Shown: positions 2,112 through 20,000 of the stretch, in pieces
Layout of the letters: each line of letters starts with the position of its first letter
Numbering within the stretch: the stretch's first letter is position 1
Source: an uncultured virus (IMG/VR IMGVR_UViG_3300042276_000285)
Taxonomy: Duplodnaviria; Heunggongvirae; Uroviricota; Caudoviricetes
Virus record (IMG/VR): IMGVR_UViG_3300042276_000285
DNA: 20,000 nucleotides
Reading direction: 5' to 3' (one strand)
Notes under the pieces: generated by a model
Databases searched by the model: none
Seen by the model: only the letters and a program-made list of their open reading frames with translations
What the model was told of the DNA's origin: nothing
Translations under genes and position numbers: made by a program

Positions 2112-2296
2112 TGAGAGTAATCGGTAAGTTTGTAGGAAGGGACATTGGCAAGACAGTGGGAAAGGCTCGCCTTGGGTCAAAGTTGAACTCTTATGCGATT
2201 ACAACAGACATCGAAGATGGAGTTATTCAGGCAATTTTAACAGATAGTGAAGACGGAACACCAGAATTAATCTTAATTGATACGGAGGACAGATAA
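2111..2296 (+). CDS. Hypothetical small protein
   Basis: 61 aa; TAATG coupling with the upstream gene and 2 nt from the next ATG. Confidence 0.6.
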   Translation: MRVIGKFVGRDIGKTVGKARLGSKLNSYAITTDIEDGVIQAILTDSEDGTPELILIDTEDR

Positions 2297-2298
2297 TC

Positions 2299-4068: not shown

Positions 4069-4092
4069 TTCACCTTTGGAACAATACAAAGC

Positions 4093-4126
4093 AGGCAGGA
4101 TTCTTTTTAAGGGTCTTGCCTTTTTT
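4093..4126 (+). terminator. Intrinsic terminator
   Basis: AGGCAGGATTC-loop-GGGTCTTGCCT stem (with G:U pairs) followed by a T run, just after the SGNH gene. Confidence 0.7.
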
Positions 4127-4240
4127 GTGTTAATTTTACAACATGAAGAACACGCAGGAAAAGTTTGTGGACTCACAGACAAAATTCAAAATAAAGATAA
4201 ATGTAAAAAAAGCAATACGTTGGATAAAAAAGAAACTAAA

Positions 4241-4384
4241 ATGAAAGGATTGTATTTTGGAGAATGGATAGACGTGCAGAAGGTAGACGCAGAGTGGCTA
4301 AAAGAGCCGTGCTACTTCAACACAAAAGAGGGGGTTATCCCGCGTGAACTGTTAGACGACATCATAGGAGAAGAATGCTCATGA
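4241..4384 (+). CDS. Hypothetical small protein (47 aa)
   Basis: ATG 4241 follows an A-rich leader; stop overlaps the endolysin ATG (ATGA at 4381). The longer ORF-track start would run through the terminator. Confidence 0.5.
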   Translation: MKGLYFGEWIDVQKVDAEWLKEPCYFNTKEGVIPRELLDDIIGEECS

Positions 4385-4908
4385 CAGAAAAAGACAGACT
4401 GATTTTTGTTGGATATATGTATCCATACGCGAAGCTCGTAGAAGAAGACACAGAGCTGAACTGTCGTATTCAGTTGGCGCAGTTGGTGGCAGAATCCGGG
4501 TGGGAAATACCTGAAGGCAACATGCTGTTTGGCGTGAAAGATACAGACGGAATCAACGGCAACGAAATATGGGTTCCCACTACTGAAATATCAGACAACC
4601 CAAACGAAGACTACGAACACATCATAAGAGTAGAACCGTTTGTGGAAGACGGAAAGGTGTACTACGAATATACCATACGCGACTACTTCCGCAAGTACGA
4701 TAGCCCGTATGAAGCATTCTTGGATCACGCAGAGTTCTTTCAGAGAAACAGACGATATGAAAAAGCGTGGGCGGTAAGACAAGACCCGTTTGCATTTGCA
4801 ACAGAAGTAGCCAAAGCAGGATACGCCACAGCGTTGAACTACGAAGCGTATCTTCACAGCATGATACGCAGTGTAGACAAGAGGCTTAAAAAATTAGGTC
4901 TGTTATAA
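4381..4908 (+). CDS. Endolysin, GH73 glucosaminidase/FlgJ-like peptidoglycan hydrolase
   Basis: Motifs AQLVAESGW (catalytic Glu), NMLFGVK, FRKYDS, NRRY and GYAT..NY (YaT motif). Confidence 0.9.
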   Translation: MTEKDRLIFVGYMYPYAKLVEEDTELNCRIQLAQLVAESGWEIPEGNMLFGVKDTDGINGNEIWVPTTEISDNPNEDYEHIIRVEPFVEDGKVYYEYTIRDYFRKYDSPYEAFLDHAEFFQRNRRYEKAWAVRQDPFAFATEVAKAGYATALNYEAYLHSMIRSVDKRLKKLGLL

Positions 4909-4912
4909 TGTG

Positions 4913-4920
4913 TATTTTTG
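4913..4920 (+). promoter_or_regulatory. Bacteroidota sigma-70 -7 element (TAnnTTTG)
   Basis: TATTTTTG 16 nt upstream of ATG 4937; no well-spaced -33 element. Confidence 0.45.
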
Positions 4921-4936
4921 TATCAAAACAATAAGA

Positions 4937-6520: not shown

Positions 6521-7322
6521 AATTGGATTTACGTTGCTCTTTTTAGGCACGTTTTTGTTTTTGAGTACAAGTTGTCAGAACTTCTTTTGGAGCCACAGGT
6601 GTTGCGACACGGTAGTTCCACCACAAACAGAATACGGCTACCTGTACAATTGGTGGGCGGCAATAGGAGATACTGATGGTGATAATGTTTCTAATACCAG
6701 CATTGCTAACGACGGGTGGAGAGTTCCAACAAAGACGGATTATGAAACATTAGCACTGTACATAGAGCCAACTGCAACAGCTTCGACAAACACTGTATCC
6801 AAATTCCTAAAAGAAGAAGGAACTGAATATTGGCAGATAGCTACCACTGGCAACAACGATTTTGGATTTAGTGGAAGAGGATCGGCTACCAGAGACTATT
6901 CTTCTGGTGAATTTAGTGGATTGAAACAAATATTAAGACTATGGAATTCAACTGAATTCGACGCAGATAGAGCAACTGAATCTATTATGGCATACAACAC
7001 AGACAGGTTTGCTACGTCTATCGGTAGTGGGAGTGTTATATCTTATAAGGAAAGGGGAAGCTCAATAAGATTGGTTAAAATAACCCCAACGGCAGAAGAG
7101 CTTTTGTTGCCAGATGGTTCTGTTGCCGACCCATATGTTGGAAATGATGGAAAAATATATCCTACTGTGAAAATTGGAACACAGGTTTGGATTTCTTTAA
7201 ACTTAGAAGAAACAGAGTATAGAAACGGAACAGACATTCCGTTGATTGGAAACACCGCAGCAGATCAACTTATTTGGACCGGGCTTACAACTGGAGCTTA
7301 TAGTATTTATCCAATACCTTAA
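6513..7322 (+). CDS. Fib_succ_major (FISUMP; C-type-lectin-like fold) domain protein, circularly permuted, with signal peptide
   Basis: YGYLYNW, GWRVPT, GFSG, WNSTE and GSSIRLVK come first, then DGKIYPTVKIGTQVWISLNL and YRNGTDIP...TTGAY. Hydrophobic N-terminus ending in LSTSC. Confidence 0.8.
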   Translation: MNRIGFTLLFLGTFLFLSTSCQNFFWSHRCCDTVVPPQTEYGYLYNWWAAIGDTDGDNVSNTSIANDGWRVPTKTDYETLALYIEPTATASTNTVSKFLKEEGTEYWQIATTGNNDFGFSGRGSATRDYSSGEFSGLKQILRLWNSTEFDADRATESIMAYNTDRFATSIGSGSVISYKERGSSIRLVKITPTAEELLLPDGSVADPYVGNDGKIYPTVKIGTQVWISLNLEETEYRNGTDIPLIGNTAADQLIWTGLTTGAYSIYPIP

Positions 7323-7326
7323 AGAT

Positions 7327-7797
7327 ATGTTAAAGAAAGTATGGAAGTGGATTAAAGGGCTTGTACGCAAGGCAGATGACCTTGTTGAGAAAGCACTACC
7401 AGTTGCTACGGCAGTGGTAGAGGGAGTAAAGAAAGCAATAGACAGCGGACTATTCGACGCTGTTTCTGCGACGGTAAAGAGTCTTATTACCGGCACGGCA
7501 GACGACGTATTGATAGATAAAGCTGTATCGATAGCAAAAAAACAAGTCCCAAAACTGGCATTGCAACTACAAATAGTATCTGGCATTGCTGGAATAGAAG
7601 ACGAGAACGAACAAATGAAAGCCATCTTCAAAGCTTTGGGGGAATCTTCCGGCGTAGAGTGGCAGAAGTTTTGCACGGGGCTTGCACAGGAAGTCCTCAT
7701 AGCACTTGCTGACGACAAAATCACATGGGGTGAGGCAGGTGGATTGGTTGAATATTATTACAGAAATTATATAAACAAACAAAATGGAACTACTTAA
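7327..7797 (+). CDS. Hypothetical helical protein (lysis-associated region)
   Basis: ATG 4 nt after the upstream stop; amphipathic N-terminus MLKKVWKWIKGLV. Confidence 0.65.
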   Translation: MLKKVWKWIKGLVRKADDLVEKALPVATAVVEGVKKAIDSGLFDAVSATVKSLITGTADDVLIDKAVSIAKKQVPKLALQLQIVSGIAGIEDENEQMKAIFKALGESSGVEWQKFCTGLAQEVLIALADDKITWGEAGGLVEYYYRNYINKQNGTT

Positions 7798-8107
7798 TAT
7801 TTTCACAGACGTAAAGACGTGGCTTGGTGGCATTGGCATTGTAGGTGTCGTGTCCGGCGTATGGTTGTTCGTAAAGAAGAACGGATGGGCATTGTTGATA
7901 GACAAATACGCCAAAAAAGGAACTATCTTTTTTAAAGAAACAGGAGAGTTTTTTCTTAGTTTATCTGTTTTATCTCAAAAGATAGATGATTCTATAAAAG
8001 ACAATGGTAATCTTATTGAAAACAGCGTTAAAGAAGCTATCGAGGCTGGCAAGACGGTCAAAGCAGAGCTAAGAGACGTAATTGTAATCATAAAACCTAA
8101 AAAATGA
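7784..8107 (+). CDS. Putative holin-like membrane protein
   Basis: One hydrophobic segment (WLGGIGIVGVVSGVWLFV) followed by a charged tail; end of late operon. Confidence 0.5.
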   Translation: MELLNIFTDVKTWLGGIGIVGVVSGVWLFVKKNGWALLIDKYAKKGTIFFKETGEFFLSLSVLSQKIDDSIKDNGNLIENSVKEAIEAGKTVKAELRDVIVIIKPKK

Positions 8108-8190
8108 TATACGTAGCAATTGGAGTACTTCTATGGGGGTATGTTGGATGGAAGTTGTACGAAAGTGCATATATAAAAAAAGGAAGCTAA
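8104..8190 (+). CDS. Small membrane peptide (28 aa)
   Basis: ATGA overlap with the upstream stop; translates MIYVAIGVLLWGYVGWKLYESAYIKKGS. Confidence 0.45.
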   Translation: MIYVAIGVLLWGYVGWKLYESAYIKKGS

Positions 8191-8206
8191 CAACTTCCTT
8201 TTTTTT
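8175..8206. terminator. Bidirectional intrinsic terminator
   Basis: A7-GGAAG-loop-CTTCC-T8, exactly where the + and - gene blocks converge. Confidence 0.8.
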
Positions 8207-8738
8207 ATCCTATATTGTTATTTTGCCTAAACTTAATATTGTTTTTCTCTAACCACTCTGTGAATAGGTACAACACTTTAACACCCTGTTCGAATTCAGG
8301 CTTTTCGTGAAGTCTTGTTTCTTCCCTGAACTTAAACTGAAACTTATCCCAGTTAACGTTTTCTCCTTCTTCAAGATGAGTGGCAATCCTTCTTAATAGC
8401 AAAGAAACAAGCTGACTTGCGCTGACGTTGTAAAAGCCAATAGCGTCTTTTATGTATCCGCCAGACAACTCCTTGGCTTCCTTGAACTCTACAGATCTTT
8501 CATCTTTAAGGTTTAGCAAATAACGATTCAGGTCGTCTTCTAATGTCTGCAAAGAAGCGTGCGTCACAATGTCTGCTGGTCTTTTAATGTCTCCAACCTT
8601 CCAGTACAACGAAGATATCGACCTGCTGTGTGGCTTGTTTTGAATTAACCAAATACCATCTGTCATGTCATATCTCTCTGGCATCGTAACCTCTACGTAC
8701 CTTCTTCCTACTTTTTTGTACAATTTTTCCTGATTCAT
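8205..8738 (-). CDS. Hypothetical protein
   Basis: 177-aa ORF; N-terminal LYKKVGRRY motif seen in phage proteins; coupled to the upstream gene. Confidence 0.7.
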   Translation of the reverse strand: MNQEKLYKKVGRRYVEVTMPERYDMTDGIWLIQNKPHSRSISSLYWKVGDIKRPADIVTHASLQTLEDDLNRYLLNLKDERSVEFKEAKELSGGYIKDAIGFYNVSASQLVSLLLRRIATHLEEGENVNWDKFQFKFREETRLHEKPEFEQGVKVLYLFTEWLEKNNIKFRQNNNIG

Positions 8739-9064
8739 TTTCTTTTATTGTATATGTAAAATCTTTCATCTTCCTGTTCTGCAAACACGTCAAACTCCGG
8801 TTGCTCTTTGCTGACAACCAGTCTTCCACCGAATATACTTCCAATGGGGCGCACAATGCCTTTTTCAGCCAGTGTCTTTTCGTAGTCGCTCAATTCCAGT
8901 ACAAGGGGCTGCACTGGCTTAAACATATAACAAGAGTTGACAGAACTACCAGTTCCGCATTCATATCTCGGTGCATGTCCTGAACCCCTTTTTTCGTGTT
9001 CTGCTTCAAGGAACCTTGCCCTGAACTCACAGCGAAAGCACAGATGTTTCATACTTCCAGCCAT
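8735..9064 (-). CDS. Hypothetical Cys-containing (possible Zn-binding) protein
   Basis: CFRCEFRA...YEC...NSCYMF pattern. Confidence 0.65.
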   Translation of the reverse strand: MAGSMKHLCFRCEFRARFLEAEHEKRGSGHAPRYECGTGSSVNSCYMFKPVQPLVLELSDYEKTLAEKGIVRPIGSIFGGRLVVSKEQPEFDVFAEQEDERFYIYNKRK

Positions 9065-9228
9065 ATTTCTTTGTACAGTCCCTTTGTGTCCAAACGCAAC
9101 TCAATGGTGTCTATTCTCATAACGCCTTTGTTGCAGCTTGGAAACACTTCGTTTACACGAATACGCGTATTTTTGTCTACGTCGCCCTCTATTTCGACGT
9201 TGCCGAATTGTGGAAACTTCAATCTCAT
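9049..9228 (-). CDS. Hypothetical protein (59 aa; not in ORF track)
   Basis: MRLKFPQFGNVEIEGD...KEIWLEV; fills the gap, with ATGA coupling to the upstream gene. Confidence 0.55.
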   Translation of the reverse strand: MRLKFPQFGNVEIEGDVDKNTRIRVNEVFPSCNKGVMRIDTIELRLDTKGLYKEIWLEV

Positions 9229-9635
9229 AGTCCTTGTATTTCTTGTTTAGTTAACTTAATTGCTTTGTTCAACAGTTTTATGTTGTCGTATACACCGATA
9301 AAGTTGTCAACAGCATAGTCCTTGCTAACGACGCTTACACCGCGTGTAAACCAACCGTCTGCAAAGAATCTGCTGTGAGACTCACATAGATTTAGTTCGT
9401 CCTCCGTTGAGGAAAGAGGCAATAGATACAGAAACTCTTTCTCTACCTTTATTACCACACACGGTCTCTTTTTGGCACCTACGCCGTTGGCAATCACGTC
9501 GCCCTTCTTGAAGTATCTTGGCTGTCCAAACATTGCGCCACCAACAGAGTGGACAAATCCTTTTGTCTCTCCTTTGGTGAAACTTTGCTTTACACTCGAT
9601 TCTATGATGTCGTACAGTTCTTGTTTTGTTGCCAT
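9225..9635 (-). CDS. PemK/MazF-like fold protein
   Basis: KKGDVI...KKRPCVVI...LLPLSST matches the PemK/MazF signature (GD..., KxRPxvV, vPlTS). Confidence 0.6.
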   Translation of the reverse strand: MATKQELYDIIESSVKQSFTKGETKGFVHSVGGAMFGQPRYFKKGDVIANGVGAKKRPCVVIKVEKEFLYLLPLSSTEDELNLCESHSRFFADGWFTRGVSVVSKDYAVDNFIGVYDNIKLLNKAIKLTKQEIQGL

Positions 9636-9644
9636 AAATTTTAA

Positions 9645-9673
9645 AGATTAAAGTCCCGGTCAACACCGGGACT
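9645..9673 (-). terminator. Stem-loop / probable intrinsic terminator
   Basis: Perfect 9-bp stem AGTCCCGGT-CAAC-ACCGGGACT; followed on the - strand by an interrupted U tract. Confidence 0.55.
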
Positions 9674-9696
9674 CTTGATACAAAATCTCGTGAACG

Positions 9697-9834
9697 TCAT
9701 TCGTTATACAACCAATCTATATTCACTGCCATCTTGCGAAAGTCGTAGTTGGCTTCCAAATGAAACTTCCGCAAAATTTCTTCTATTGCTTTTAGCCTTT
9801 CTTCGTTGAGTGTTCGCTTTGGAATCTTGTTCAT
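9697..9834 (-). CDS. Hypothetical protein (45 aa; not in ORF track)
   Basis: MNKIPKRTLNEERLKAIEEIL...; ATGA coupling with the upstream stop; ends just before the hairpin. Confidence 0.5.
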   Translation of the reverse strand: MNKIPKRTLNEERLKAIEEILRKFHLEANYDFRKMAVNIDWLYNE

Positions 9835-10397
9835 GACTTTTGTTCTTGTTGATTGTCAATGCTCAACTGTTCGAATCTATCATCGAACTGCAAGTCGACA
9901 GTAGTAACCTTGTCGGGTTTGTCAAACAAGTGCCGTGCAGCATTTAAAAGAATAGCCGATGCCTCAAAGCAAAACACTCTCTTTTCTTTGTTCTTTGGAG
10001 ACAGGTCGATCTTTCCATTGCTGAGAATGTACGGCATCCACCACGCAAAATTCAATATTTCATATTCTATGTTGCCATAGGCCATTTCGTTGGCTTTATC
10101 GCTTACCATTTCTTTTTCACGTTCTGTCAGTTGTTCTTTTAGTCTAAACGCAAGAACGTCTTTTGTTTTGTTGTGAATGTTTAGATCGGTTATAACATAT
10201 CCTTTCGCAACAGCTTCGGCAACTACAACGTTGTTTTCTCTTTTCCAAACCACCGTCATCGTGTGATTGTAGTACTTGTCCAACTTTTTCCCGTAGTGAA
10301 TTTTCGCCCATCGTTTCATGAAAAACTGTATTCCCTTTGGCAGGAATCCACTGTTGTTGTGTATGGCAATTATATCGCCTATTTGTAGTTCAATCAT
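9831..10397 (-). CDS. Permuted papain-like NlpC/P60 (YiiX/YebB, C92) enzyme
   Basis: LQIGDII, YNHT (His), AEA and FCFE (Cys after His = permuted order). Confidence 0.75.
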   Translation of the reverse strand: MIELQIGDIIAIHNNSGFLPKGIQFFMKRWAKIHYGKKLDKYYNHTMTVVWKRENNVVVAEAVAKGYVITDLNIHNKTKDVLAFRLKEQLTEREKEMVSDKANEMAYGNIEYEILNFAWWMPYILSNGKIDLSPKNKEKRVFCFEASAILLNAARHLFDKPDKVTTVDLQFDDRFEQLSIDNQQEQKS

Positions 10398-10627
10398 TTC
10401 CTAAAGTCTTTTTCTGTCAATTCCATATACGTAAATCCATATTCTTCTGCCAGTGCCATTGCTGTTCTGCACGCCTTTTTGAAGCTATCTATCCCGTGTA
10501 GTTCTACAGACACCTTTCTCAAATCCTGTGTCATAGGGTAGCGAAACACGCCGTTGGAGCTAAACCATCGTATGTATTCACCGCCTGTCACGTCCTGTAC
10601 TTTAAATCCGTATGTCTTCATATCCAC
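10394..10627 (-). CDS. Hypothetical protein
   Basis: 77-aa ORF overlapping both neighbours in the operon. Confidence 0.6.
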   Translation of the reverse strand: MDMKTYGFKVQDVTGGEYIRWFSSNGVFRYPMTQDLRKVSVELHGIDSFKKACRTAMALAEEYGFTYMELTEKDFRK

Positions 10628-10893
10628 CTTCCTTCTTTGATTATCAATTCGTCTATTCCTTCTATCTCCACGCCGTTGAACTCAACACGCAAGTCACCCC
10701 ACCTGTATATGAAGTTTGTTGCCGGAGGAGTCCACATGTCCCCTGCTATGTACTGCCACTCCGAAAACACAGTCCCGTTCACAATAGCCACGCCGTCGTC
10801 GAAGACAAACTCCTCGTCTTTGTAGAATTGTACGTCGTCGTTGTATCCTTCCAGAAGCAATTCTGACAGGGTTTTTAAGCTGAACTTTGCCAT
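10618..10893 (-). CDS. Hypothetical protein
   Basis: 91-aa acidic ORF in operon orientation. Confidence 0.6.
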   Translation of the reverse strand: MAKFSLKTLSELLLEGYNDDVQFYKDEEFVFDDGVAIVNGTVFSEWQYIAGDMWTPPATNFIYRWGDLRVEFNGVEIEGIDELIIKEGRWI

Positions 10894-10940
10894 AGTAGTC
10901 TATTTGTATTGCCTGTTGCTAAAAGTGTCTAAAACACCGC

Positions 10941-11153
10941 TTAGATTCCGTCTCCGCTGACGATTTGATTCAGTTGAGACAAAATGTAATCCTGTGCATC
11001 TCCCCAGAACATGTCGCACGTGAATACGCCGTCTTCTATCTTAAACGGAGTGTATACAAACCACGACTGCATTTCTCCTTCTGTTGACGTGTGGCGATGA
11101 CACTTGTCTGCTATCGGGCAGTTTGTTCCGTTGCACTTTGTAATGTCTGTCAT
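10941..11153 (-). CDS. Small Cys-rich phage hypothetical protein
   Basis: MTDITKCNGTNCPIADKCHRH: the DIT.C.G..CP....C.R pattern is common in phage small proteins. Confidence 0.7.
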   Translation of the reverse strand: MTDITKCNGTNCPIADKCHRHTSTEGEMQSWFVYTPFKIEDGVFTCDMFWGDAQDYILSQLNQIVSGDGI

Positions 11154-11208
11154 TTCTTTTCCAATATTAATACTACTTCCTTTGTTTTCATAATTCTAAA
11201 ATTTAAAG

Positions 11209-11293
11209 TTGATCCGGATAGAGGAATCGAACCTCCATTTCCCAATTGGATGTAATACCTCTGGGCTGCGCACTTCCCTTATACGAATCCGAC
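11209..11293 (-). ncRNA. tRNA-like element / pseudo-tRNA (non-canonical anticodon arm)
   Basis: Acceptor TCGGAT/ATCCGG, D arm GTAT-AAGGGAA-GTGC, T arm GGAGG-TTCGATT-CCTCT. The middle arm is an extended CCCAG...TTGGG stem with no 7-nt anticodon loop. Confidence 0.6.
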
Positions 11294-11312
11294 ATTAAAA
11301 TACTCCTAAACT

Positions 11313-11372
11313 CTTCTATTGCATAGGATTCGAACCTATCTGAACACCCATCCGTGAACCCCGCCAGCAGAA
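11313..11372 (-). ncRNA. Second T-arm-containing tRNA-like remnant
   Basis: Perfect T arm ATAGG-TTCGAAT-CCTAT enclosed by an imperfect TTCTGCTG/CAATAGAA stem; no clear D or anticodon arm. Confidence 0.4.
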
Positions 11373-11451
11373 CTCTCGTATTTTATAGAGTTTTTAGTGT
11401 TTCAAAGAACTTCCTGCGGTACTAAACCGCGTTTAGAAACTTTCATGGGTA

Positions 11452-11482
11452 CAAAGATACAGCATAAAACGCAACCCACAAA
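11452..11482 (-). promoter_or_regulatory. Bacteroidota sigma-70 promoter
   Basis: TTTG-19 nt-TATCTTTG, matching the -33/-7 consensus; intergenic, upstream of the tRNA-like elements. Confidence 0.8.
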
Positions 11483-11505
11483 ACATTTTTATATGTTGTA
11501 CAACA

Positions 11506-12741
11506 TTAAATGGTGATCCTAAGAACAGTCTCGTGCTTTCTTGTTTTCTCCAGAGACTTTGGGTTGTACGCGTCCTGCCAGTCTTTTGTGTCGTAGCCTT
11601 CGTATCCGGTCGTGTCCTGTATGTCGATTTTTACAGAATCTATTCCGTGTTCTTTTACAACGTGAAGGTTTTGACTTGCTTTTCCTACGAGAAGAAGTGC
11701 ATCTTCTGAGTAGTTGTTCGACCCACACACCGACGACGACCTTGCATACATATCTGCTATCATAGCCTCGTGCAGGTGTCCGTAGATAACAAAGTCAATA
11801 AGTATGTCCATGTTTGCATACTTGCGTATGAGCTTGGACATGTCTTTGGATACGTCTTTGCCTATTTGATTCCCGTGAACGAGCAAAAACACCTTGTCTC
11901 CAACCTCTACGACTTCTTCCAGCTTGTCAGACAACCCCAAGAAAGATACCCCCTGTGTTCCGTGTAGCTTATATCTTAAAATGTTAAAGATGGTAAAGTC
12001 GTAGTTGTCGCTGACTATGTCACCGTTCCAGTTAAAGTCCTTGCCAACACGGGATTCGTTTCCACAGACACCAGCCACGTGAACGTTGTAGTGTTCGTTT
12101 AGCTGAACGATGGCGTTCTCTATTATTTGAACCGCAATAAATGTTGCCTTAGACCTGTTTGTCGCCATAGCCAGAATCTCATCCAACCTTCTATCCGAGT
12201 TTAGGAGATCTCCGGTCATGAGCAGGAAAACGTCTACTACGTCAAATCTGTTCAGATACTCTACCGACTCAGTAATAAACTTCTGTATCCTCTTTGACGC
12301 TATCGTAAAGTCGTATTTGTTGCTTTTTATGTTAATGAGTTCGTTAAAGTGAACGTCGCTCAGGTGGACAACGCCAAATGCCTTCCCAACAGCATTGTGA
12401 AATACACCAGCAGGCTTATACGGATTGTTCTGAAATACTTCGATTAGCTGCTTCGTGTATTCGCTAACAGCGTTTTCTACCCTTGCATACTCCCGGAACG
12501 ACTTCCTTTCAATTCTGTTCAAGTCCATGTGCTTTTGCCGCTGCTTTTGAAACCTGACATTCTGCTCTACAAGCTCCGCGTCTGTCTCAAAGAACTCACT
12601 CAACTTGTCCATATTTCGAGACATAAACCAATAGTACCGTGCCTCTTGGTCTGAAATGCCAAATTGTGCTGCTATGGATTCTCTTGAAGGCATAGTCGGA
12701 TCGTCTACAACCCTTCTCAACAGTTCTACATTTAATTCCAT
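11506..12741 (-). CDS. Calcineurin-like metallophosphoesterase with N-terminal HTH-like segment
   Basis: SDVH, TGDLL, GNE (GNH variant), VHG and GHLH motifs; N-terminal SRESIAAQFGISDQEARYY. Confidence 0.85.
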   Translation of the reverse strand: MELNVELLRRVVDDPTMPSRESIAAQFGISDQEARYYWFMSRNMDKLSEFFETDAELVEQNVRFQKQRQKHMDLNRIERKSFREYARVENAVSEYTKQLIEVFQNNPYKPAGVFHNAVGKAFGVVHLSDVHFNELINIKSNKYDFTIASKRIQKFITESVEYLNRFDVVDVFLLMTGDLLNSDRRLDEILAMATNRSKATFIAVQIIENAIVQLNEHYNVHVAGVCGNESRVGKDFNWNGDIVSDNYDFTIFNILRYKLHGTQGVSFLGLSDKLEEVVEVGDKVFLLVHGNQIGKDVSKDMSKLIRKYANMDILIDFVIYGHLHEAMIADMYARSSSVCGSNNYSEDALLLVGKASQNLHVVKEHGIDSVKIDIQDTTGYEGYDTKDWQDAYNPKSLEKTRKHETVLRITI

Positions 12742-13625
12742 CCTCTATTTAAACTTTGATTTATAAATTCGTGTAAATTTTTATATTCCTGTTCGCGCCG
12801 CGTAGACTTGTCTCGCCACCCATCTGTTTCCCACGTAAAGTCAAACAGCGTTTTTGGCATTACAAACATTCCTTCGTCCCTACTCACCCGTTTCTTTCCG
12901 GCACGTTTAACCCTCTCGTCGCGACCGCAAGTTACACGAATTGTTTTAATGTCGTAAATATCAGAATATTTTTCAACAAGATATCGCAATCCAACTTCGT
13001 CGATAACGTATGTGTTTTCTTCTTTTACGTCTGAATGCAAACAGCAATACCGCCGCCCGCCAAACTCTGTAAAAGCAATCATGTCGTCCTTGTTGAACGC
13101 GTCAAATTCAGCGTCAGAAACGAATGTATGCCCTGTTTCGTCAGGCGTCCTTCTTGGTCTGGTTGTGTAGCTCTGAATTATAGACACGCCAAAGTTGCTT
13201 TCTATGTATTCAGCAAGGGTGCTTTTGCCTGAGCCACTTTCTCCGACGATACAAATTACTACGGGCTTACGATGCGACTTCCACTGAACGTATTCGTCTG
13301 CTTTCTGCCACCCCGGAAACCCACCAATGTTCTTGTCATCGAAGTATATGTCACCAGATGCCTTGCGCGTATCGATACCGTAAAAATCGATGATGTCAGG
13401 ATCGTTTTCATTCAAAAAGTGATAAAGGATTCCATTGGACTGCAAAAATCTTCTGCAATTATCCAAATGCTCACCAGCCCTGCACGTCCACACGCCTATC
13501 TTGTGTCCCTGTCCGTACCACTTGTTTATCGTTTCTTTTGCTCCACTCATAAGCGTGCCTATGCGTGGGTACTGACTGGACACAATCGTGCCGTCAAAGT
13601 CTACTATAAGCGTTAATTTCTTCAT
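12732..13625 (-). CDS. HAD-family phosphatase (BT0820-like) fused to guanylate kinase-like domain
   Basis: N-terminal VDFDGTIV, WTCR, RK..DIYFDDK; C-terminal P-loop GESGSGKST with SYTTRPRR and YVIDE.G. Confidence 0.85.
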   Translation of the reverse strand: MKKLTLIVDFDGTIVSSQYPRIGTLMSGAKETINKWYGQGHKIGVWTCRAGEHLDNCRRFLQSNGILYHFLNENDPDIIDFYGIDTRKASGDIYFDDKNIGGFPGWQKADEYVQWKSHRKPVVICIVGESGSGKSTLAEYIESNFGVSIIQSYTTRPRRTPDETGHTFVSDAEFDAFNKDDMIAFTEFGGRRYCCLHSDVKEENTYVIDEVGLRYLVEKYSDIYDIKTIRVTCGRDERVKRAGKKRVSRDEGMFVMPKTLFDFTWETDGWRDKSTRREQEYKNLHEFINQSLNRGWN

Positions 13626-13748
13626 AATTTTAAATTTAATGCAGGGATGCAGGTCTGGTTAACCTGATTCATCCCCGCTATTGAAATTCAGCTATTTTGA
13701 TATTTCACCGCTCCACACGGCATTAAAATAAAAAGTTAATAGTTTGTA

Positions 13749-13979
13749 TTACTTCTGATAGAAACTCGCTCTACGGGCGTAAAAATACTCTTCTTCGTCA
13801 AAATTGACGGGTGCCATTCCATGCTGCATTCTCATGATGTCGTACTTGCGCGCCGCATGTTCCTCGTCCTTTGTTCTCTTTCTGTAAACAGTCTTGTTTA
13901 CAATTAGCTGGGCTACCCAATATTCCCATCCGTGTTCGTTTGTCTTAAACACGCCCCTGTATTTACTTTTTCCTGCCAT
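13749..13979 (-). CDS. Stand-alone AP2-domain DNA-binding protein
   Basis: SKYRGV...WVAQL...EEHAARKYD...NF. Confidence 0.75.
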   Translation of the reverse strand: MAGKSKYRGVFKTNEHGWEYWVAQLIVNKTVYRKRTKDEEHAARKYDIMRMQHGMAPVNFDEEEYFYARRASFYQK

Positions 13980-14176
13980 TACTTTCGCTTAAATACATTT
14001 ACCGGCTCAAGTCCGTTTCTCATAAGGAACAGGTCGTACTGCACGGCTGCTTCCCTCTCTGTGTCTTGTATCGTTTCAAATACACTGCCGCCAATTTGTT
14101 TGCGTGCTATCCACTTCTGCCTGCCGTACACCATGCGCTTCGACACACCTTTGTATCCACTTGGAGACTTCTTCAT
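13979..14176 (-). CDS. Stand-alone AP2-domain DNA-binding protein
   Basis: SGYKGV...WIAR...EREAAVQYD...PVN. Confidence 0.75.
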   Translation of the reverse strand: MKKSPSGYKGVSKRMVYGRQKWIARKQIGGSVFETIQDTEREAAVQYDLFLMRNGLEPVNVFKRK

Positions 14177-14640
14177 TTCAACAGTTCTTTTATGTTCTTT
14201 ACTCCCATTTCCTGCATCTTCTTTATGTACTCGTCCAAGTATCGAAATGCTTTTAGTCCGTCTTCCTCAGGCTTGCCATTTATTGTTGGCACACGAAGAT
14301 GGTTTCTTGCATAACTAAGTCTTTCCAAGTCGTTCATTTTGTTGTTTTTTATTCCTTTGTATGAAATAGAAATGTCTTTTACAATGAATTTGTCGTCACG
14401 CTGTGTCCCCCGAACAACGGCAATGTTGTATCTCTTTTCGTGATACCTGCTGTTGACAACTTCCCTGTCAAATACAAGGTCGTCGTCCCACAGCACAAAC
14501 CCCTGTTCGAGCATTTCTTCTTCCAGTGCGTCGTAGTATGGAACGATGTCCACAAAGTCGCTCGTGTCCAAGTCGGGAGCAATTCTGTGAATATCGTCCA
14601 CGTCAAATCTGTTCAATTTTCCTTTAATCAACATACACAA
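14173..14640 (-). CDS. Hypothetical protein
   Basis: 155-aa ORF overlapping its neighbours. Confidence 0.65.
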   Translation of the reverse strand: MCMLIKGKLNRFDVDDIHRIAPDLDTSDFVDIVPYYDALEEEMLEQGFVLWDDDLVFDREVVNSRYHEKRYNIAVVRGTQRDDKFIVKDISISYKGIKNNKMNDLERLSYARNHLRVPTINGKPEEDGLKAFRYLDEYIKKMQEMGVKNIKELLK

Positions 14641-14857
14641 ATCCTCTGTTTACGTATTCCTCGATCATATCGTATCTCAATCCTTCTGTTACGTGGTACT
14701 CCTGTAGCTCTTGTTTCTTTTCCGACCATATCCAGTAAGGCATTCCAAGTTTCACAGTGTACCAATCAGGGTTCGTATATAATTCTACGTTAATGAAGTC
14801 GAAAAAGGACTCTGCTCTCCTAAGATCATCTCTGCTTCGTTTTGTATCTGCTGCCAT
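14624..14857 (-). CDS. Hypothetical protein
   Basis: 77-aa ORF filling the gap; start uncertain (73-nt overlap with upstream ORF). Confidence 0.5.
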   Translation of the reverse strand: MAADTKRSRDDLRRAESFFDFINVELYTNPDWYTVKLGMPYWIWSEKKQELQEYHVTEGLRYDMIEEYVNRGFVYVD

Positions 14858-15195
14858 TTTTCGTCTGTCATATTAGCCTTAACTACGTTGATGATAGCGT
14901 CCATTATATTTCCACGCAATGTCTCAATGTATTTAATTTTCATTTCAATCAACTTGTACAAGTCTTTCTGTAGCTTGTAGGTTCTTTTTACCCTGCGATA
15001 ATGGTCTGCATCCAAGTAGCTTCCATTGTCGCTCTTGTAGTCTTCTATCACCTCTATCTGCATTTCCAGTGAAGCAACGTCCATGTGCTGCTCCATAAGC
15101 CACTCCTGTAGCTGCAACAGGTCACCACAGTCAAGCACGTCGCCTGACTTTAAACCTGTATTCTTGTTCTTGATCTCAAATTCTTTCTTCACCAT
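14785..15195 (-). CDS. Hypothetical coiled-coil protein
   Basis: 136-aa helical ORF, TAATG-coupled to the resolvase gene. Confidence 0.65.
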   Translation of the reverse strand: MVKKEFEIKNKNTGLKSGDVLDCGDLLQLQEWLMEQHMDVASLEMQIEVIEDYKSDNGSYLDADHYRRVKRTYKLQKDLYKLIEMKIKYIETLRGNIMDAIINVVKANMTDEKWQQIQNEAEMILGEQSPFSTSLT

Positions 15196-15692
15196 TAAAA
15201 CTTTCTCCTTGCATATTCGGCTAACAACAATCCGTCTGCGTCGCCGTGTTTAACAATTAAATCTCTGTGTTGCGGAAACAGCCTGCACCCAATGTCACGT
15301 GAATCGTCTTTAAGGGTTTTTGATCCATGCGGCAGAAGCTCTTTTTGCCATGCTTTTGAGTCCTCAAACTGAATAGGTATATGAAAGTACTCCACGGCAA
15401 TCAAAACGGCTTCTAACGCCCTTAAAGCACTCGTGGTGGCACCAAACCGCGTCGGATTTACCATCGGCCTTTCAATTAAACAAATTGTAGCCTCTGGGTT
15501 GCCTTTGCTAAGTATATCTGCAAACACACTTAGCATTTTGTCAAAGTCGATTCTTGTGATGTTTGCCTTCTTCTTCGTGTAGTTTTGCTCCATTTTTACG
15601 GGAACATTTAGGAACCACGTTTTGTTGTTGCATATAGCCCCTATCGTTCCGCTAACACCGTTGTCGATTCCGATATAAAGTTTATTTTCCAT
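15195..15692 (-). CDS. RuvC-like Holliday junction resolvase
   Basis: YIGIDNGVSG (catalytic Asp), LIER, WQK and GDADGLLLA; start assigned to MENKLY. Confidence 0.8.
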   Translation of the reverse strand: MENKLYIGIDNGVSGTIGAICNNKTWFLNVPVKMEQNYTKKKANITRIDFDKMLSVFADILSKGNPEATICLIERPMVNPTRFGATTSALRALEAVLIAVEYFHIPIQFEDSKAWQKELLPHGSKTLKDDSRDIGCRLFPQHRDLIVKHGDADGLLLAEYARRKF

Positions 15693-16074
15693 TGCGTGTA
15701 AATTTAAAGTATTCAACAACGTCTCTGTCCAAGAAGAATATGTCCTTCTCAAAGTGACTCTCCATCTTCCATCTGCCATCGTCTTGTTTTACCAACACGT
15801 GCCACCTGTCCAAGTCGTAACTAAAAGGGACACTTCTTGTCACCATCTTCATCTGGTCTACCACGTTTCCGGCAGAGCTTTCTACCTTTTGCATTACCGT
15901 CTCCGGTACGCTGTCGTTTCCGTATTTCATAGACGTGTAGAAGTCAACAAGGATTCCCTCTGCGTAGTATTCAACAGTTGTTGCTTCTGCGTCAAGTATG
16001 TCGGAATGTTCCGGGTTACCGTAATCCACGTCTACCTCGCGTGTCTTACGTATGTATGCCTTAATTGGAATCAC
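15682..16074 (-). CDS. Hypothetical protein
   Basis: 130-aa ORF (GTG start) overlapping its neighbours. Confidence 0.6.
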   Translation of the reverse strand: MIPIKAYIRKTREVDVDYGNPEHSDILDAEATTVEYYAEGILVDFYTSMKYGNDSVPETVMQKVESSAGNVVDQMKMVTRSVPFSYDLDRWHVLVKQDDGRWKMESHFEKDIFFLDRDVVEYFKFTRNGK

Positions 16075-16864
16075 CGAATATTCTTTTAATGTTTATATCC
16101 TTAATAGAAAACTTATCAGGCATTGACTCTTTTCTTGGTTCAATGCTACCTCGTCTCAACAGCTCTACATACGCAGTTTCTTTTACAGCACAAAACTTTT
16201 CCCACAAATAGTCACGCTCTTTGTCTTTCACTTCAGTAAACGTGTATTTTTTCTTTGTTGTGTTGCCAAGTATTATCACGCCGGCTTTGTCAGCACCGAC
16301 GACCCTGCGAATGGATTCCACCTGCATCTTGTGTTCTTCTGACACCACCTTTGACGTCTTCCAATCCAACACCCACCTGTCCTTGTAGTCGTCTGCCAAA
16401 ATTCTTGCCTCCAAATCCAGAGTAAACCCAAAGTCCTCGCCCGTGGACATACGCTCAGACGCAAGTATCTCCGGTTGCTGGTCTGACATGAAGTTCATAA
16501 ACGCCAGCAGGCACACTTTTATTTTATACGCCTCCTTTTCGTTTGGGAAAGCAGCATCTATATCTGCGTGTTGTATGTCTACGTTGGACTTAATCATTCT
16601 GTCAATACTGTCGTGAACAAAGCTGCCTATTTCAGCAGAACGCGCAAGTATGTCGTCTGCATACATTCCATTTTGCTGCCTCCACTTTGACAACCCAACT
16701 GGCTCTGGTGCGCCAACAGACGTAATAAAATGATATGCCGGGAAAAAGCTGTTGCCAGTACGAGGGTTTATCTTTGACGGATCGTGGTAAAACCTCGTAT
16801 CGAATACGCTATCCGTTATTCTCTCTATCATATAAATATTTTTTAAAATTTTCGTGTGACTCAT
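16061..16864 (-). CDS. PD-(D/E)XK exonuclease (phage recombination nuclease)
   Basis: GSFVH, ASE, GFTLDL, LDWKTS and Q motif order; start may be the Met at 16831. Confidence 0.8.
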   Translation of the reverse strand: MSHTKILKNIYMIERITDSVFDTRFYHDPSKINPRTGNSFFPAYHFITSVGAPEPVGLSKWRQQNGMYADDILARSAEIGSFVHDSIDRMIKSNVDIQHADIDAAFPNEKEAYKIKVCLLAFMNFMSDQQPEILASERMSTGEDFGFTLDLEARILADDYKDRWVLDWKTSKVVSEEHKMQVESIRRVVGADKAGVIILGNTTKKKYTFTEVKDKERDYLWEKFCAVKETAYVELLRRGSIEPRKESMPDKFSIKDINIKRIFGDSN

Positions 16865-17081
16865 CTACAAATCTTACGCAGTCAATCCAATCCTTGTCGA
16901 TGAATTGTTTAACTCCAATGTCGCAAAGTTTTTTGCTCACCTGCTCAGGCGTAGAAAAAAAACCAACTGGATCGTAATTATCTTTTCCTGCTTTTTCGCC
17001 TTTCTTAATCTGCTTCTTTTCATACAGAATGTACTGATACTGGTCTGAACCAATGTACAGATTATCAGTTAACTTTTTCAT
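16809..17081 (-). CDS. Hypothetical protein
   Basis: 90 aa; SDQYQYIL...GFF pattern seen in small phage proteins. Confidence 0.65.
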   Translation of the reverse strand: MKKLTDNLYIGSDQYQYILYEKKQIKKGEKAGKDNYDPVGFFSTPEQVSKKLCDIGVKQFIDKDWIDCVRFVDESHENFKKYLYDRENNG

Positions 17082-17559
17082 TGGCTTTCAGTGCTTCTGT
17101 GAAAAATCTGTCTGCAACGCGCAATACGAATTGAGACGTTGTCTTCACCACCTCGTCTTCGTCGTTGGTTTTAACGGTAATTGTAATGCCATTTGCCAAT
17201 CTAACCGCCGCATCTAAAGCATTTAGCCACACAGTGACCGGAAACGCACTTCTTTCTTCTGTCTTGACAGGTGCGGGTGATGCCTGCTGTGCAGAGCTTC
17301 CGCTTGCAATAATCTTTGACGTCTTTGTGACTATATTTTTATACCCGTTCTTTTCTTCCAACAAAAGTTCCACCTCTTGTCCTTCTTTGAACTTGTTGCC
17401 GTTCTGATCCACCGGCCACACCTCGCCATTTCTTTCGTTGCACAGGCCGTTGTGCCACTCTCCGTTTACCTTTAAACCATAGCCTGCAAATTTTCCGTGT
17501 TTGCCTTCACGCGGTTCTTTCACGTTTACCGCTTCTACTATTCCTTTTACAATTTCCAT
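17065..17559 (-). CDS. Putative ssDNA-binding (OB-fold) protein
   Basis: Beta-rich N-domain (YGLKVNGEW...GQEVEL...GYKNI) plus low-complexity linker; lies near the exonuclease gene. Confidence 0.5.
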   Translation of the reverse strand: MEIVKGIVEAVNVKEPREGKHGKFAGYGLKVNGEWHNGLCNERNGEVWPVDQNGNKFKEGQEVELLLEEKNGYKNIVTKTSKIIASGSSAQQASPAPVKTEERSAFPVTVWLNALDAAVRLANGITITVKTNDEDEVVKTTSQFVLRVADRFFTEALKANEKVN

Positions 17560-17579
17560 GATTAATTTTATTATAAAGT

Positions 17580-17993
17580 TTACTTCTTAATTTTCTTTGT
17601 CTTTCCAACGTTCAGCAACAGAAGTTCGTCTGCCTGTTCCCCATAGTTTGCTATCAAAAAGTTCTGACAGTTTTCGTTGAACTGCACCAGCCTTTGCAAG
17701 CTCATTCCGGCAATAGATTCAACCTCGTATTCTCCGTCCAAATCCCTGACAAGAGCAAACATTTTTTGAAGTTCTTCTTTTGCTTCGTTTTCTCCAAATC
17801 CGGAAAGTTCTGAAAACGTGGGAACGATGCACCTGTGAAAAAAACTGTTAGAGTTTAGCCATTTTTCATACTCGTCTGTTCCTTTGTGTGGCCTGTGAGA
17901 AACAGCCATCAAAACATATGGAAACGGAACTCCGTCCAAGTCCGTCTTTGCGTCGTATAAATCCTGCCTATGTCCTATGTGGTACTTTTTCAT
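17580..17993 (-). CDS. NinB/Orf-like recombination protein
   Basis: NSFFHRCIV..FSELSG..ENEAKEELQKMF...SIAGMS..LVQF resembles the NinB pattern. Start 17993 lies downstream of a promoter. Confidence 0.55.
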   Translation of the reverse strand: MKKYHIGHRQDLYDAKTDLDGVPFPYVLMAVSHRPHKGTDEYEKWLNSNSFFHRCIVPTFSELSGFGENEAKEELQKMFALVRDLDGEYEVESIAGMSLQRLVQFNENCQNFLIANYGEQADELLLLNVGKTKKIKK

Positions 17994-17997
17994 AAAA

Positions 17998-18579
17998 TTA
18001 TTCCGCAAAGATAGCACTTTGTTTCCAATAATCAAAGCGCATCGTCTCATTTGTGTTGTAAAACATATCTATTTTCATTCTCCAAAACCAAACCTCGTCC
18101 TGTCTATCATAATACACGTTTCTCATCACTGCTTCTCCATAGTCGTCTGTTTTAAGCTCTTTTGAGTACAATACAGACACTTTCAACTGCCTTCCGATAA
18201 AAGTATCGACTCCTTTGTAAACACGCCTGAAATAGCTGTTAAAATCCTCGTCGTGGCGTTGTTCTTTAAGCTCCTTACCAAACGCCGCACAAAGTTCTTT
18301 TGCTCTGTTGTAGTCAAATATAAATTCAGAATGCCGCACAAAGCTAATTTTTGTCTTTAATCCGTCTACAAACTCTGGTTTGCGTGTAAATACACATTCT
18401 ATGTAAGCTTTGTTGTTTTTATCGAGTTTATAGTACGCATTAGAAAGAGTGCATTCGTTTTCACCAATAAAAAACAACTTCCCCTTTGACTGCGTTCCGT
18501 TCTTGTTCGTGTATGTCCCTGTTTGTAATACGGACATCGCATACAACAAATCCCTGTGTTCTTGTTTTAAAAAGCTCAT
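17998..18579 (-). CDS. Hypothetical protein (possibly OB-fold)
   Basis: 193-aa ORF in the recombination module. Confidence 0.65.
   Translation of the reverse strand: MSFLKQEHRDLLYAMSVLQTGTYTNKNGTQSKGKLFFIGENECTLSNAYYKLDKNNKAYIECVFTRKPEFVDGLKTKISFVRHSEFIFDYNRAKELCAAFGKELKEQRHDEDFNSYFRRVYKGVDTFIGRQLKVSVLYSKELKTDDYGEAVMRNVYYDRQDEVWFWRMKIDMFYNTNETMRFDYWKQSAIFAE
18006..18036 (-). promoter_or_regulatory. Bacteroidota sigma-70 promoter
   Basis: TTTG-19 nt-TATCTTTG, 12 nt upstream of ATG 17993. Confidence 0.7.
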
Positions 18580-18593
18580 AATGGTTTAATAAG

Positions 18594-19367
18594 TTAAACA
18601 GCAACATCCAAAGGATTATACATTTTATTCATCCTTTCAGCAGGAATGTGATAGTAGTGTAATGTAGAGTTAAGACAATTGTGTCTTGCCATGTCTTTTG
18701 CAGCAAAAACGTTTTCATGCTCTATCAGATTGGTGAGATAAGTTCTTCTAAAATCGTGTGAAGAGTATTTTTTGTTTGAAACACGCGAAATTATATTACA
18801 AACACTCTCGGCAGAGTATTTAATTGAATTTTGTCCGTTGAACAAATACTCTATTGGCCTCCATTCTCTTAGATACTTTAGCATATATTTTTTTGTTGAA
18901 TTAATAAAAATACGATTATTAACCCAATCGATATCAGTTAATCTTATATTTATCATTTCAGACCTTCTTATTCCTGTAGAATATAATAAAATGAGTATAA
19001 GTTTATGTTTTGAATTTTTACATTTCTTCCCCATTGATACAAATTCGTCCCAACTAATGATGTCATAAAACCTGCGTTTAGTTTTAACCGGATGGAACCA
19101 ACTCATCTTTTGGGGTTGTTTTAATAAGTCATCATACAATATTTTAAGCGCAGACCCATTAACATTGTAATAACTATCTGAAAATTCATTGCGAATAAAT
19201 GCCATGTATCCCATTAAATCCTGTTTAGTTATCCTGTAAATACGACTGTATCTACTACAAAATATTTTAACACAAGACCAGTAAGAATTAATTGTCTGTT
19301 CTGAATTGATATTTGGTTTATTTCTCAAAACAGTGACATAGTTTTGTTTCAGTTCTGTCAAATCCAT
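18594..19367 (-). CDS. Tyrosine recombinase (N-terminal SAM-like domain plus catalytic domain)
   Basis: SEQTINSY N-domain; LLYSTGIRRSE (R), STK (K), HDFRR (HxxR), ARH (H) and TLHYYH (Y). Markedly AT-rich. Confidence 0.9.
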   Translation of the reverse strand: MDLTELKQNYVTVLRNKPNINSEQTINSYWSCVKIFCSRYSRIYRITKQDLMGYMAFIRNEFSDSYYNVNGSALKILYDDLLKQPQKMSWFHPVKTKRRFYDIISWDEFVSMGKKCKNSKHKLILILLYSTGIRRSEMINIRLTDIDWVNNRIFINSTKKYMLKYLREWRPIEYLFNGQNSIKYSAESVCNIISRVSNKKYSSHDFRRTYLTNLIEHENVFAAKDMARHNCLNSTLHYYHIPAERMNKMYNPLDVAV

Positions 19368-19385
19368 TTTTATCTGATTGAAAAT

Positions 19386-19431
19386 TAATTGGTTAAACTA
19401 ATTGGTTTTAATAATAGTTATGCCCAATTAA
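19386..19431 (+). other. attI-like recombination site
   Basis: Direct repeat TAATTGGTT (19386-19394, 19399-19407) followed by core G|TTATGCCCAATTAA (19417-19431), just upstream of the recombinase start. Confidence 0.55.
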
Positions 19432-19787
19432 GCGAAAGCAAGTTTAACAAGCCTCATTTCTTGGCTTTGGTAAGTTTCTCCACCTTCAATTTTGGCTATC
19501 ATTTCTGCACAATATCCACCATCAGTCCATCTACTATTATCTTCTTCAAAGTGTACCTCTGTATAATCTTTGTAGGTGTATTCTCCGCCTTTGTACCCAT
19601 AGAAAGTACCCGTGTAGGCTTTTTTTATATTCGCCAAAATTTCTTCTCTTGTCATTGGCTGTTCAAGTATTTCAAAAGCTACTTCATCATAGCTACCACG
19701 CCAAGAAAAAGGTTCGCTAATTCCATAATCAAAAGTTTTACCAGCTTCGGCTTGTTCAATCTGTTGTTTAAATTCTTTTAGTTCCAT
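19428..19787 (-). CDS. Phage hypothetical protein (cassette 1 ORF)
   Basis: PFSWRGSYDEVAFE...TFYGYKGGEY, a pattern I recognise from small phage proteins; flanked by inverted core sites. Confidence 0.75.
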   Translation of the reverse strand: MELKEFKQQIEQAEAGKTFDYGISEPFSWRGSYDEVAFEILEQPMTREEILANIKKAYTGTFYGYKGGEYTYKDYTEVHFEEDNSRWTDGGYCAEMIAKIEGGETYQSQEMRLVKLAFA

Positions 19788-19812
19788 TTTATTAAATTTT
19801 GTTGTTTATAAA

Positions 19813-19883
19813 TTAACTGGGCATAACATCGTATATCCCCCATATTCGTACCTCATACGGTGCATATACACACCGTTAGCGGT
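19813..19883. repeat. attC-like imperfect palindrome
   Basis: GGGCATAAC-ATC-GTATAT-CCC-CCATAT-loop-ATACGG-TGC-ATATAC-ACACC-GTTAGCGG; AAC...GTT core ends, about 61 bp core to core. Confidence 0.7.
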
Positions 19884-20000
19884 AATGCGAACCAAACACA
19901 TCATCCACCGCTATGTTATAATATTCCTTTTCCTTTTCAATCCCAATAAATCTTCTGTTCAAATCCTTAGCACCTAAACAAGTTGTCCCACTACCCATTG
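19876..20000 (-). CDS. N4/N6 DNA methyltransferase, C-terminal fragment (cassette 2 ORF; not in ORF track)
   Basis: Translates MGSGTTCLGAKDLNRRFIGIEKEKEYYNIAVDDVFGSHYR*, the SAM-binding motif I region of beta-class MTases. The TAA stop lies inside CGCTAAC. Confidence 0.85.
   Translation of the reverse strand, partial: MGSGTTCLGAKDLNRRFIGIEKEKEYYNIAVDDVFGSHYR

Follow-up and report, generated by a model that had tools for sequence, protein, structure and literature searches.

A probable integron-like gene-cassette platform beside an Xer-like recombinase in a phage genome

The window, a 20,000-nucleotide (nt) stretch of an uncultured tailed virus (IMG/VR record IMGVR_UViG_3300042276_000285, Caudoviricetes), closes at its right end with a tyrosine recombinase gene, a small gene of cassette type and the 3' end of a DNA methyltransferase (methylase) gene, separated by short complementary arms (Table 1). 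The locus probably belongs to an integron-like gene-cassette platform carried by the phage, of which it forms the end nearest the recombinase. This reading is carried by direct observations of how the units are built, how their sites covary and are biased to one strand, how units are gained, lost and transferred at the core, and how consistently array, junction site and recombinase occur together. All features named in the initial annotation, which was made from the letters of the window, were confirmed by a sequence check, with the core, its complementary arm, the second core, the recombinase, the open reading frame (ORF) and the methylase stop codon lying where they had been placed. The GTTATGCCCAATTAA core is situated 50 nt upstream of the recombinase start codon, and a repeat search located the direct repeats of the intervening flank at 19382-19394 and 19395-19407. 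For the cassette ORF (ORF119), a Pfam search returned no family, PHROGs gave PHROG 12889 (unknown function, 3.9e-6), and only viral hypothetical clusters were found in the protein atlas, with scores of at most 0.86. Along the coding strand, the folding site of the window reads TAAC, bulge, GTATAT, loop, ATATAC, spacer and GTTA, and the TAA stop of the methylase gene occupies 19876-19878. Within the window alone, the inverted arms do not exceed chance: the 15-mer core pattern with at most three mismatches gave 2 matches against 1.25 expected, 68 of 200 shuffles reached at least 2, and the arm pair is the ninth of 23 inverted pairs found by repeat search in the equivalent 6 kilobases (kb). The significance of the arms comes from the context outside.

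Table 1. Coordinates of the features at the recombinase end of the window.
Feature	Position in window	Strand	Remarks
Xer-like tyrosine recombinase gene	18594..19367	-	257 amino acids (aa); Pfam Phage_integrase 8.5e-14 and SAM_4
attI-like flank, between crossover core and recombinase start codon	19368..19416	-	two 13-nt direct repeats
Crossover core at the attI junction	19417..19420	-	GTTA on plus strand, TAAC on coding strand
Right-end arm (R'') of last unit, GTTATGCCCAATTAA	19417..19431	-	14/15 complementary to 19813-19827
Cassette ORF (ORF119), 119 aa, function unknown	19428..19787	-	between the two arms
Left-end arm (R') of last unit, TTAACTGGGCATAAC	19813..19827	-	belongs to B half of folding site
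attC-like folding site, between methylase unit and ORF119 unit	19810..19892	-	covariance model R1
Core GTTAGCGG	19875..19882	-	crossover letters 19875-19878; methylase stop codon inside
DNA methyltransferase gene, 3' end	19876..20000	-	Pfam N6_N4_Mtase 5.2e-10; PHROG 67, 1.4e-64; runs off window

The extension beyond the window was made from a near-identical IMG/VR record of 59,516 nt (G001), which is about 99.9% identical to window 4064-20000 and then continues rightwards; a nucleotide search of the phage collection gave no match. The hexamer TAACGG ends almost every gene on the gene-coding (minus) strand of G001 between 17.4 and 28.0 kb, an interval containing 17 of its 25 minus-strand copies, while 12 of the 18 plus-strand copies lie within 53.0-58.7 kb, where the genes are on the plus strand. 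This clustering on the two strands therefore defines two arrays, with about 19 units in array 1, on the strand of the window, and about 12 in array 2. The array that the initial annotation had extrapolated past base 20000 is thus present, and the window contains only the last 1.3 units of array 1. On each strand of G001, a simple detector identified 26 sites, almost all of which belong to the two arrays, against 1-3 in ten shuffles. It was noisy in AT-rich DNA, giving about 10 matches per strand, most of them implausible, in the Polaribacter phage P12002L, and was therefore replaced by a covariance model for the survey of other genomes.

The repeating unit has a constant anatomy. In the consensus of 37 sites, read on the coding strand, an end arm AATG-N5-TAAC is followed by GG, a few bases and an L arm (GTATAAG-like), and some distance downstream the partner site consists of the counterpart of this L arm, followed by a spacer of 3-4 nt and GTTA-N5-CGT. 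Each unit extends from one TAAC to the next and contains one internal partner site; the left arm of this site is complementary to the preceding site, and the right arm to the end of the unit itself. The GTT-end of a cassette had been claimed to complement its own AAC-end; the GTTA arm indeed complements the TAAC arm of its own unit over 8-19 nt. Array 1 shows this at 15 of its 17 TAACGG sites, array 2 at 11 of 13. The L arm behind TAAC pairs with that of the next partner site, usually far above the second-best candidate, and the full pairing chain is present in about 22 of 30 units. Genes sit between L arms, between R arms, or read through the partner site, with stretches of 29 to 984 nt between the L arms. 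One prediction failed, the partner core ACCGCTAAC expected at the far end of the methylase gene being absent from G001, where the methylase unit holds a 262-aa ORF, the best partner score is 5 and no B site is found. The read-through ORFs of array 1 in G001 (for example 22007, 23796, 24203 and 24634) encode in-frame peptides such as LH(N/G)VS, in which the valine and serine codons are always GTT AGC.

The sites share a structure more than a sequence. A structure alignment of 23 compact sites from nine loci yielded 24 pairs predicted by RNAalifold, 15 of them with compensatory changes, and 94.7% of cells were paired, a level that none of 500 column shuffles reached (75.0 ± 1.2) and that compares with 37-55% in slid controls. 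TAACG pairs with TGTTA, followed by a 3-nt bulge on the 5' strand only and then by a stem of at least 14 base pairs. G·T pairs are conserved at fixed columns in 22 and 21 of the 23 sequences, and among the 99 L-stem mismatches of the 37 sites, G (5' arm)·T (3' arm) accounts for 63, and A·C and C·A together for 7. In 14 of 15 short sites the fold energy is lower on the coding strand than on its complement. Covariation and consensus together exhibit the features of attC-type sites, namely inverted R and L arms, an AAC/GTT core, variable sequence and preserved structure. Because of the directional bias of the G·T pairs and the greater stability of the coding strand, the fold is seen to be selected on one strand, the recombinase sense strand, as is the bottom strand in integrons. 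The strand-biased G·T pairing suggests, from sequence, that a folded single strand may be the substrate. The folding site of the window (19810-19892, minus strand) scores 38.8 bits (E 3.3e-4) with a covariance model built from the sites of other phages, and its DNA fold reaches -13.2 kcal/mol on the minus strand versus -10.2 on the plus strand, the minimum-energy fold differing from the canonical hairpin.

Whole units are gained, lost and transferred between related genomes, with breakpoints at the core. The genome L006, whose backbone is 99.4-99.8% identical to G001 and whose recombinase is 95% identical, lacks G001 24469-17454, with the junction within GCTAACGGT, and has additional units, 2.5 kb in total, inserted precisely where the last TAAC meets the recombinase flank. 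Contigs from other samples were compared with G001 15500-28600 (L047), and the parts of L047 lacking contig cover in runs X4, X7 and X9 do not signify absence. A 3,034-nt contig of run X4 displays the same 7-kb junction as L006, with 173 nt on its shorter side and 9 shared letters; in both, another unit is joined just left of the core GTTAGCGG, again with 9 letters in common. In run X7, a crude-oil metagenome, the recombinase flank is joined to a unit ending at G001 26053 through 4 shared letters, and a further site-to-site deletion shares 9. The contig end of G001 brings a third cassette onto the same recombinase flank. Among the attI-flank junctions of L006, the G001 contig end and run X7, the common letters are only the 4-letter core 19417-19420, and the comparison of genomes and contigs reveals four different cassette ends adjoining the same flank at TAAC. 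Judged from these sequences, the flank has the attI feature of a site beside the integrase gene that receives cassettes at G|TT. At larger distances, L007 contains a 937-nt unit 99.7% identical to that of G001 and bounded by two TAAC, next to a recombinase gene only 71% identical in DNA, and of the 15 high-scoring segment pairs of at least 150 nt that G001 forms with more distant loci, 13 terminate no more than 9 nt from a TAAC site. Differences between relatives by whole units, anticipated from the window alone, were thereby found in L006, X4, X7 and L007.

An invertible-segment (shufflon-like) arrangement was also considered, because each segment has inverted arms at both sides, and was rejected: all joints listed for four runs are skips with no change of strand, and shared cassettes keep their orientation. 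At the end of array 2 (G001 59388-59516; L002 1501-1629), there is an exact 98-nt copy comprising the flank and the first 42 nt of the recombinase gene. Beyond this copy the G001 sequence resembles the antisense of the hairpin region of a related recombinase, and the same junction recurs as a loose end in run X9.

The association of sites, flank and recombinase was evaluated in 39 viral loci gathered by recombinase homology, some of which are near-duplicates (L037-L039, L029/L030), so that locus counts are not independent. Covariance model R1 (E ≤0.01, 780 kb searched) produced 196 matches, of which 179 fall in the 39 recombinase loci. Within these, 166 lie on the recombinase strand and the 13 on the opposite strand are weak echoes of stronger matches at the same places; 158 of the same-strand matches are upstream of the recombinase gene and 8 downstream. 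At least one match occurs in 33 of 39 loci, and five of the six loci without a match have less than 1.3 kb of upstream sequence. Since it misses long loops, the model recovers only 13 of the approximately 31 sites of G001. In 34 of the 39 loci the recombinase gene is preceded by TAAC and, after it, an AT-rich TATAT box, showing that the attI-like site proposed beside the recombinase is conserved among relatives, and closely related loci (L021-L024, L026/L027, L013/L014) present the same flank box behind different cassette ends. In the distant relative L031, a second array (18197-20557) with seven model matches lies downstream of the recombinase gene.

The distribution extends beyond these phages. 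Relatives of the recombinase at 27-33% identity are common in Bacteroidota genomes, and model matches occur in 32 of 80 Bacteroidota recombinase loci. Twelve evenly spaced sites adjoin a recombinase of the same family on a 470-kb Flaviramulus contig (L111, 11229-20053), and ten on a 714-kb Chryseolinea contig (L066, 11439-20456); in both, the genes run opposite to the model strand, the classical integron orientation, and the 3' end of the recombinase faces the array. Because the same enzyme family stands beside arrays in Flaviramulus and Chryseolinea chromosomes, the data suggest a cassette pool common to Bacteroidota and their phages. P12002L (L045), a cultured virulent phage, has model matches at 29994-30070, 38020-38104 and 38864-38950, flanking methyltransferase and Mom-like genes. 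The Polaribacter phage Freya_10, with an integrase 29% identical, gave no model match in its first 16.8 kb. Among the runs listed, 23 from 20 studies contain the DNA; most are wastewater metagenomes of 2025.

The recombinase is 271 aa long in G001 and 269-273 aa in its close relatives. Its best NCBIfam match is XerA_Arch at 104.9 bits (cutoff 220), followed by XerC at 66 bits (cutoff 335) and XerD at 60.3 bits (cutoff 329.6). The IntI model TIGR02249 scores 67.1 bits against a cutoff of 265 and covers only model positions 15-177 of 315, and PRK15417 scores 29 bits against 435. Sequence matches in PDB are best for XerA-like proteins, with IntI4 (2a3v) aligned over residues 59-171 only. The AlphaFold model has a mean predicted local distance difference test (pLDDT) score of 85.9, and Foldseek places it nearest XerA (1.3e-13) and VchIntIA (3.5e-12), the alignment to 2a3v (VchIntIA) taking 321 columns for a 271-residue query, about 50 of them extra. 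By sequence and fold the enzyme is nearest the Xer clade, and by the curated family cutoffs it is not a member of it. The earlier statement that it is not an IntI is borne out, since it fails the IntI models and does not possess the additional segment of that clade. Residues R134, K159, K162, H218, R221, H243 and Y252 are invariant in 20 sequences and include the catalytic R, K, H-x-x-R, H and Y.

Annotation of the array ORFs of G001 with PHROGs assigned DNA methyltransferases to five and a Lar-like restriction alleviation protein to one, the remaining ORFs being mostly of unknown function; a sixth methyltransferase-like ORF (G001 19824-20498) was recognised by eye only. These annotated methyltransferases and the Lar-like protein suggest that the array may serve to vary the protection of the phage against host restriction. 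The cassette ORFs had been described as running towards the recombinase, which proves true of all array ORFs. Downstream of the recombinase are an exonuclease, a Holliday-junction resolvase and further DNA-metabolism genes, and the left part of the window is a plus-strand block with endolysin and fibre-like genes. The proposed placement in an early operon is plausible, as the array stands at the head of DNA-metabolism genes arranged as a block on the minus strand. The regions preceding the cassette ORFs share no promoter motif; a GATACGAG box is present in only a few. Sigma-70-like sites were not enriched (43 vs 51.5 ± 8.3), in a scan that excludes Bacteroidota-type promoters, terminator-like sites were likewise not enriched relative to shuffles, and an Rfam search of the sites returned no match.

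From these observations we infer catalysis by the recombinase, a single-stranded substrate, circular intermediates and an exact position of cleavage. Under the proposed mechanism, folding would take place on the coding strand, the sense strand of the recombinase and counterpart of the integron bottom strand. Its two half-sites would be brought together into a duplex containing the R and L boxes, and the correct strand would be recognisable by its conserved G·T pairs and 3-nt bulge. Cleavage by the recombinase would then fall inside TAAC (G|TTA on the plus strand) and release units as circles, which may insert at the site adjoining the recombinase gene or at other sites.

In integrons, the cassette genes are oriented away from intI and transcribed from a promoter located at attI. 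The phage array resembles classical integrons in that cassettes are joined at a site adjoining the recombinase gene, the sites combine a fixed AAC/GTT core with R and L boxes that pair, crossover presumably occurs at G|TT, cassette ends are mutually complementary, whole units are gained and lost, and the folding strand is the recombinase sense strand, marked by asymmetric features. It differs in its enzyme, which is Xer-like, about 50 residues shorter than IntI and below the IntI model cutoffs, in its genes, which are encoded on the folding strand and transcribed in the direction of the recombinase, and in its phage host. The R pairing of the phage sites extends over 8-19 nt with an outer conserved AATG/CGT, the strand is presumably marked by G·T pairs and a 3-nt bulge, and their loops can contain genes. 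The array thus works like an integron and is not classed as one, because the IntI integrase is missing and the gene orientation is reversed.

The pdif (Xer) modules of Acinetobacter plasmids have two-armed sites in alternating orientation that are served by Xer-type enzymes. The phage array likewise has segments flanked by inverted copies of one type of arm and an Xer-type enzyme; unlike pdif modules, it encodes its own enzyme, its mobile unit lies between sites of the same orientation and its arms covary per unit, and no dif-like 11-6-11 site turned up, though no search was aimed at one. PeSLs are promoter and terminator stem-loop motifs thought to act by homology. As with the PeSL of T4-type phages, repeated stem-loops flank small accessory genes in variable regions and genomes differ by whole modules; unlike PeSL, the present array has a dedicated recombinase and a 4-letter junction, shows no excess of terminator-like sites and lacks the promoter and terminator composite. 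A closer resemblance is found in the CALINs, attC clusters with no integron integrase, described in virulent phages including P12002L by Qi et al. 2023 (PMC9892861). That paper calls two sites beside methyltransferases in P12002L attC, reports methyltransferases among the genes carried by phage cassettes, and shows recombination of one P12002L site with IntI1. The covariance model matches these P12002L sites beside the methyltransferase genes. The CALINs presented in PMC9892861 comprise two sites in each phage and are accompanied by neither a dedicated recombinase nor a junction site, unlike the present arrays of 12-19 units, which are tied to a conserved Xer-like recombinase and its flank.

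Several observations weigh against an active cassette platform. No circle junction or cleavage product was seen in the contigs, which were the material covered. The pairing chain is broken in about 8 of 30 units, including the methylase unit, which is without a partner site, and the loops of up to about 980 nt holding whole genes, as well as about 8 ORFs that read through the partner site, are unlike classical attC. Only 9 of 15 short sites beat shuffles by at least 4 kcal/mol. The methyltransferase-like gene at G001 19824-20498 (L047 4325-4999), located within an array loop, is replaced in three runs (X4, X6, X7) with breakpoints at its own start and end and not at the sites. P12002L possesses its three sites with no homologue of the recombinase. 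The recombinase of the window itself carries a private in-frame 42-nt deletion (window 18891-18898; G001 16422-16457) of 14 residues, which removes the beta-hairpin holding the invariant K159 and K162, and with them the catalytic lysine. The full-length enzyme is found in G001, L006 and contigs of runs X4, X7 and X9, and all other copies seen are intact; with the lysine hairpin deleted and the other copies intact, the window's own recombinase is probably inactive.

Some of these points could be accommodated by conserved intergenic hairpin repeats of PeSL type, with units shuffled by homologous or illegitimate recombination and the neighbouring recombinase uninvolved. PeSL-mediated module shuffling has reportedly been published for T4-type phages, the sites here do have conserved sequence in common, and both the gene replacement away from the sites and the retention of sites without recombinase in P12002L would be expected. 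This explanation is nevertheless unlikely, as junctions at the recombinase side share 4 letters only among four cassettes and site-to-site junctions 9, unit-specific arms covary although homology-driven exchange does not need them, array, junction site and recombinase remain linked down to 27-33% protein identity, and terminator-like sites number 6 against 7.6 ± 2.8 expected. A role at the RNA level, with processing or stabilising stems closing each transcript and DNA rearrangement as a by-product, draws on the location of sites at gene ends, often with a stop codon inside, and on the fold favoured on the coding strand with its conserved G·T (G·U) pairs, which are also compatible with it and in this respect count against the cassette reading. 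A folded DNA substrate predicts the same strand bias, exact DNA junctions at the core recur in several genomes and samples, and Rfam gives no family. In the Bacteroidota chromosomal arrays the genes are opposite to the model strand, and the fold is therefore not in the mRNA there. The RNA explanation is very unlikely.

It is highly improbable that the enzyme is an ordinary lysogeny integrase or dimer resolvase, with the adjacent core an attP or dif-like site and the array unrelated. Many relatives of the recombinase do occur in Bacteroidota genomes, and related flavophage integrases were interpreted as pointing to a temperate lifestyle by Bartlau et al. 2021 (PMC8776804). Against this, the gene-side site is the variable junction of the array itself, and 158 of 166 same-strand model matches lie directly upstream of the gene. 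A dual role of the recombinase, as integrase and for the cassette array, is possible.

Integrons are the textbook platform for gene capture, thought to need the IntI-specific insertion for handling folded attC sites. The integron-like cassette platform favoured here pairs integron logic with a different and shorter enzyme family, in phage genomes and with reversed genes. If the enzyme works as proposed, phages would own a dedicated device for swapping counter-defence genes, the integrase-less attC clusters of virulent phages would be explained, and a 271-residue enzyme with 80-nt sites would offer a test of which protein features single-strand hairpin recombination requires. We lean slightly towards a broader view in which these loci represent an unrecognised large class, with integron-like capture by short Xer-like recombinases without the IntI segment being common to Bacteroidota chromosomes and phages (genomes of 40 kb to more than 300 kb), cassettes flowing through a common folded-site chemistry, and phages reshuffling anti-restriction genes. 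If this broader view is true, folded single-strand recombination does not need the IntI insertion. Literature searches yielded no description of a recombinase-linked phage array; the nearest is PMC9892861, whose supplements may list more phage sites.

A separate difference between the two genomes, elsewhere 99.99% identical, lies in the left part of the window, where unrelated segments are swapped, window 2189-4064 (1.9 kb) corresponding to G001 133-1588 (1.5 kb). This exchange is not at folding sites. The window segment contains a 589-aa ORF with, by eye, the appearance of a GDSL-like esterase, and the swapped region looks like a tail-fibre or receptor module.

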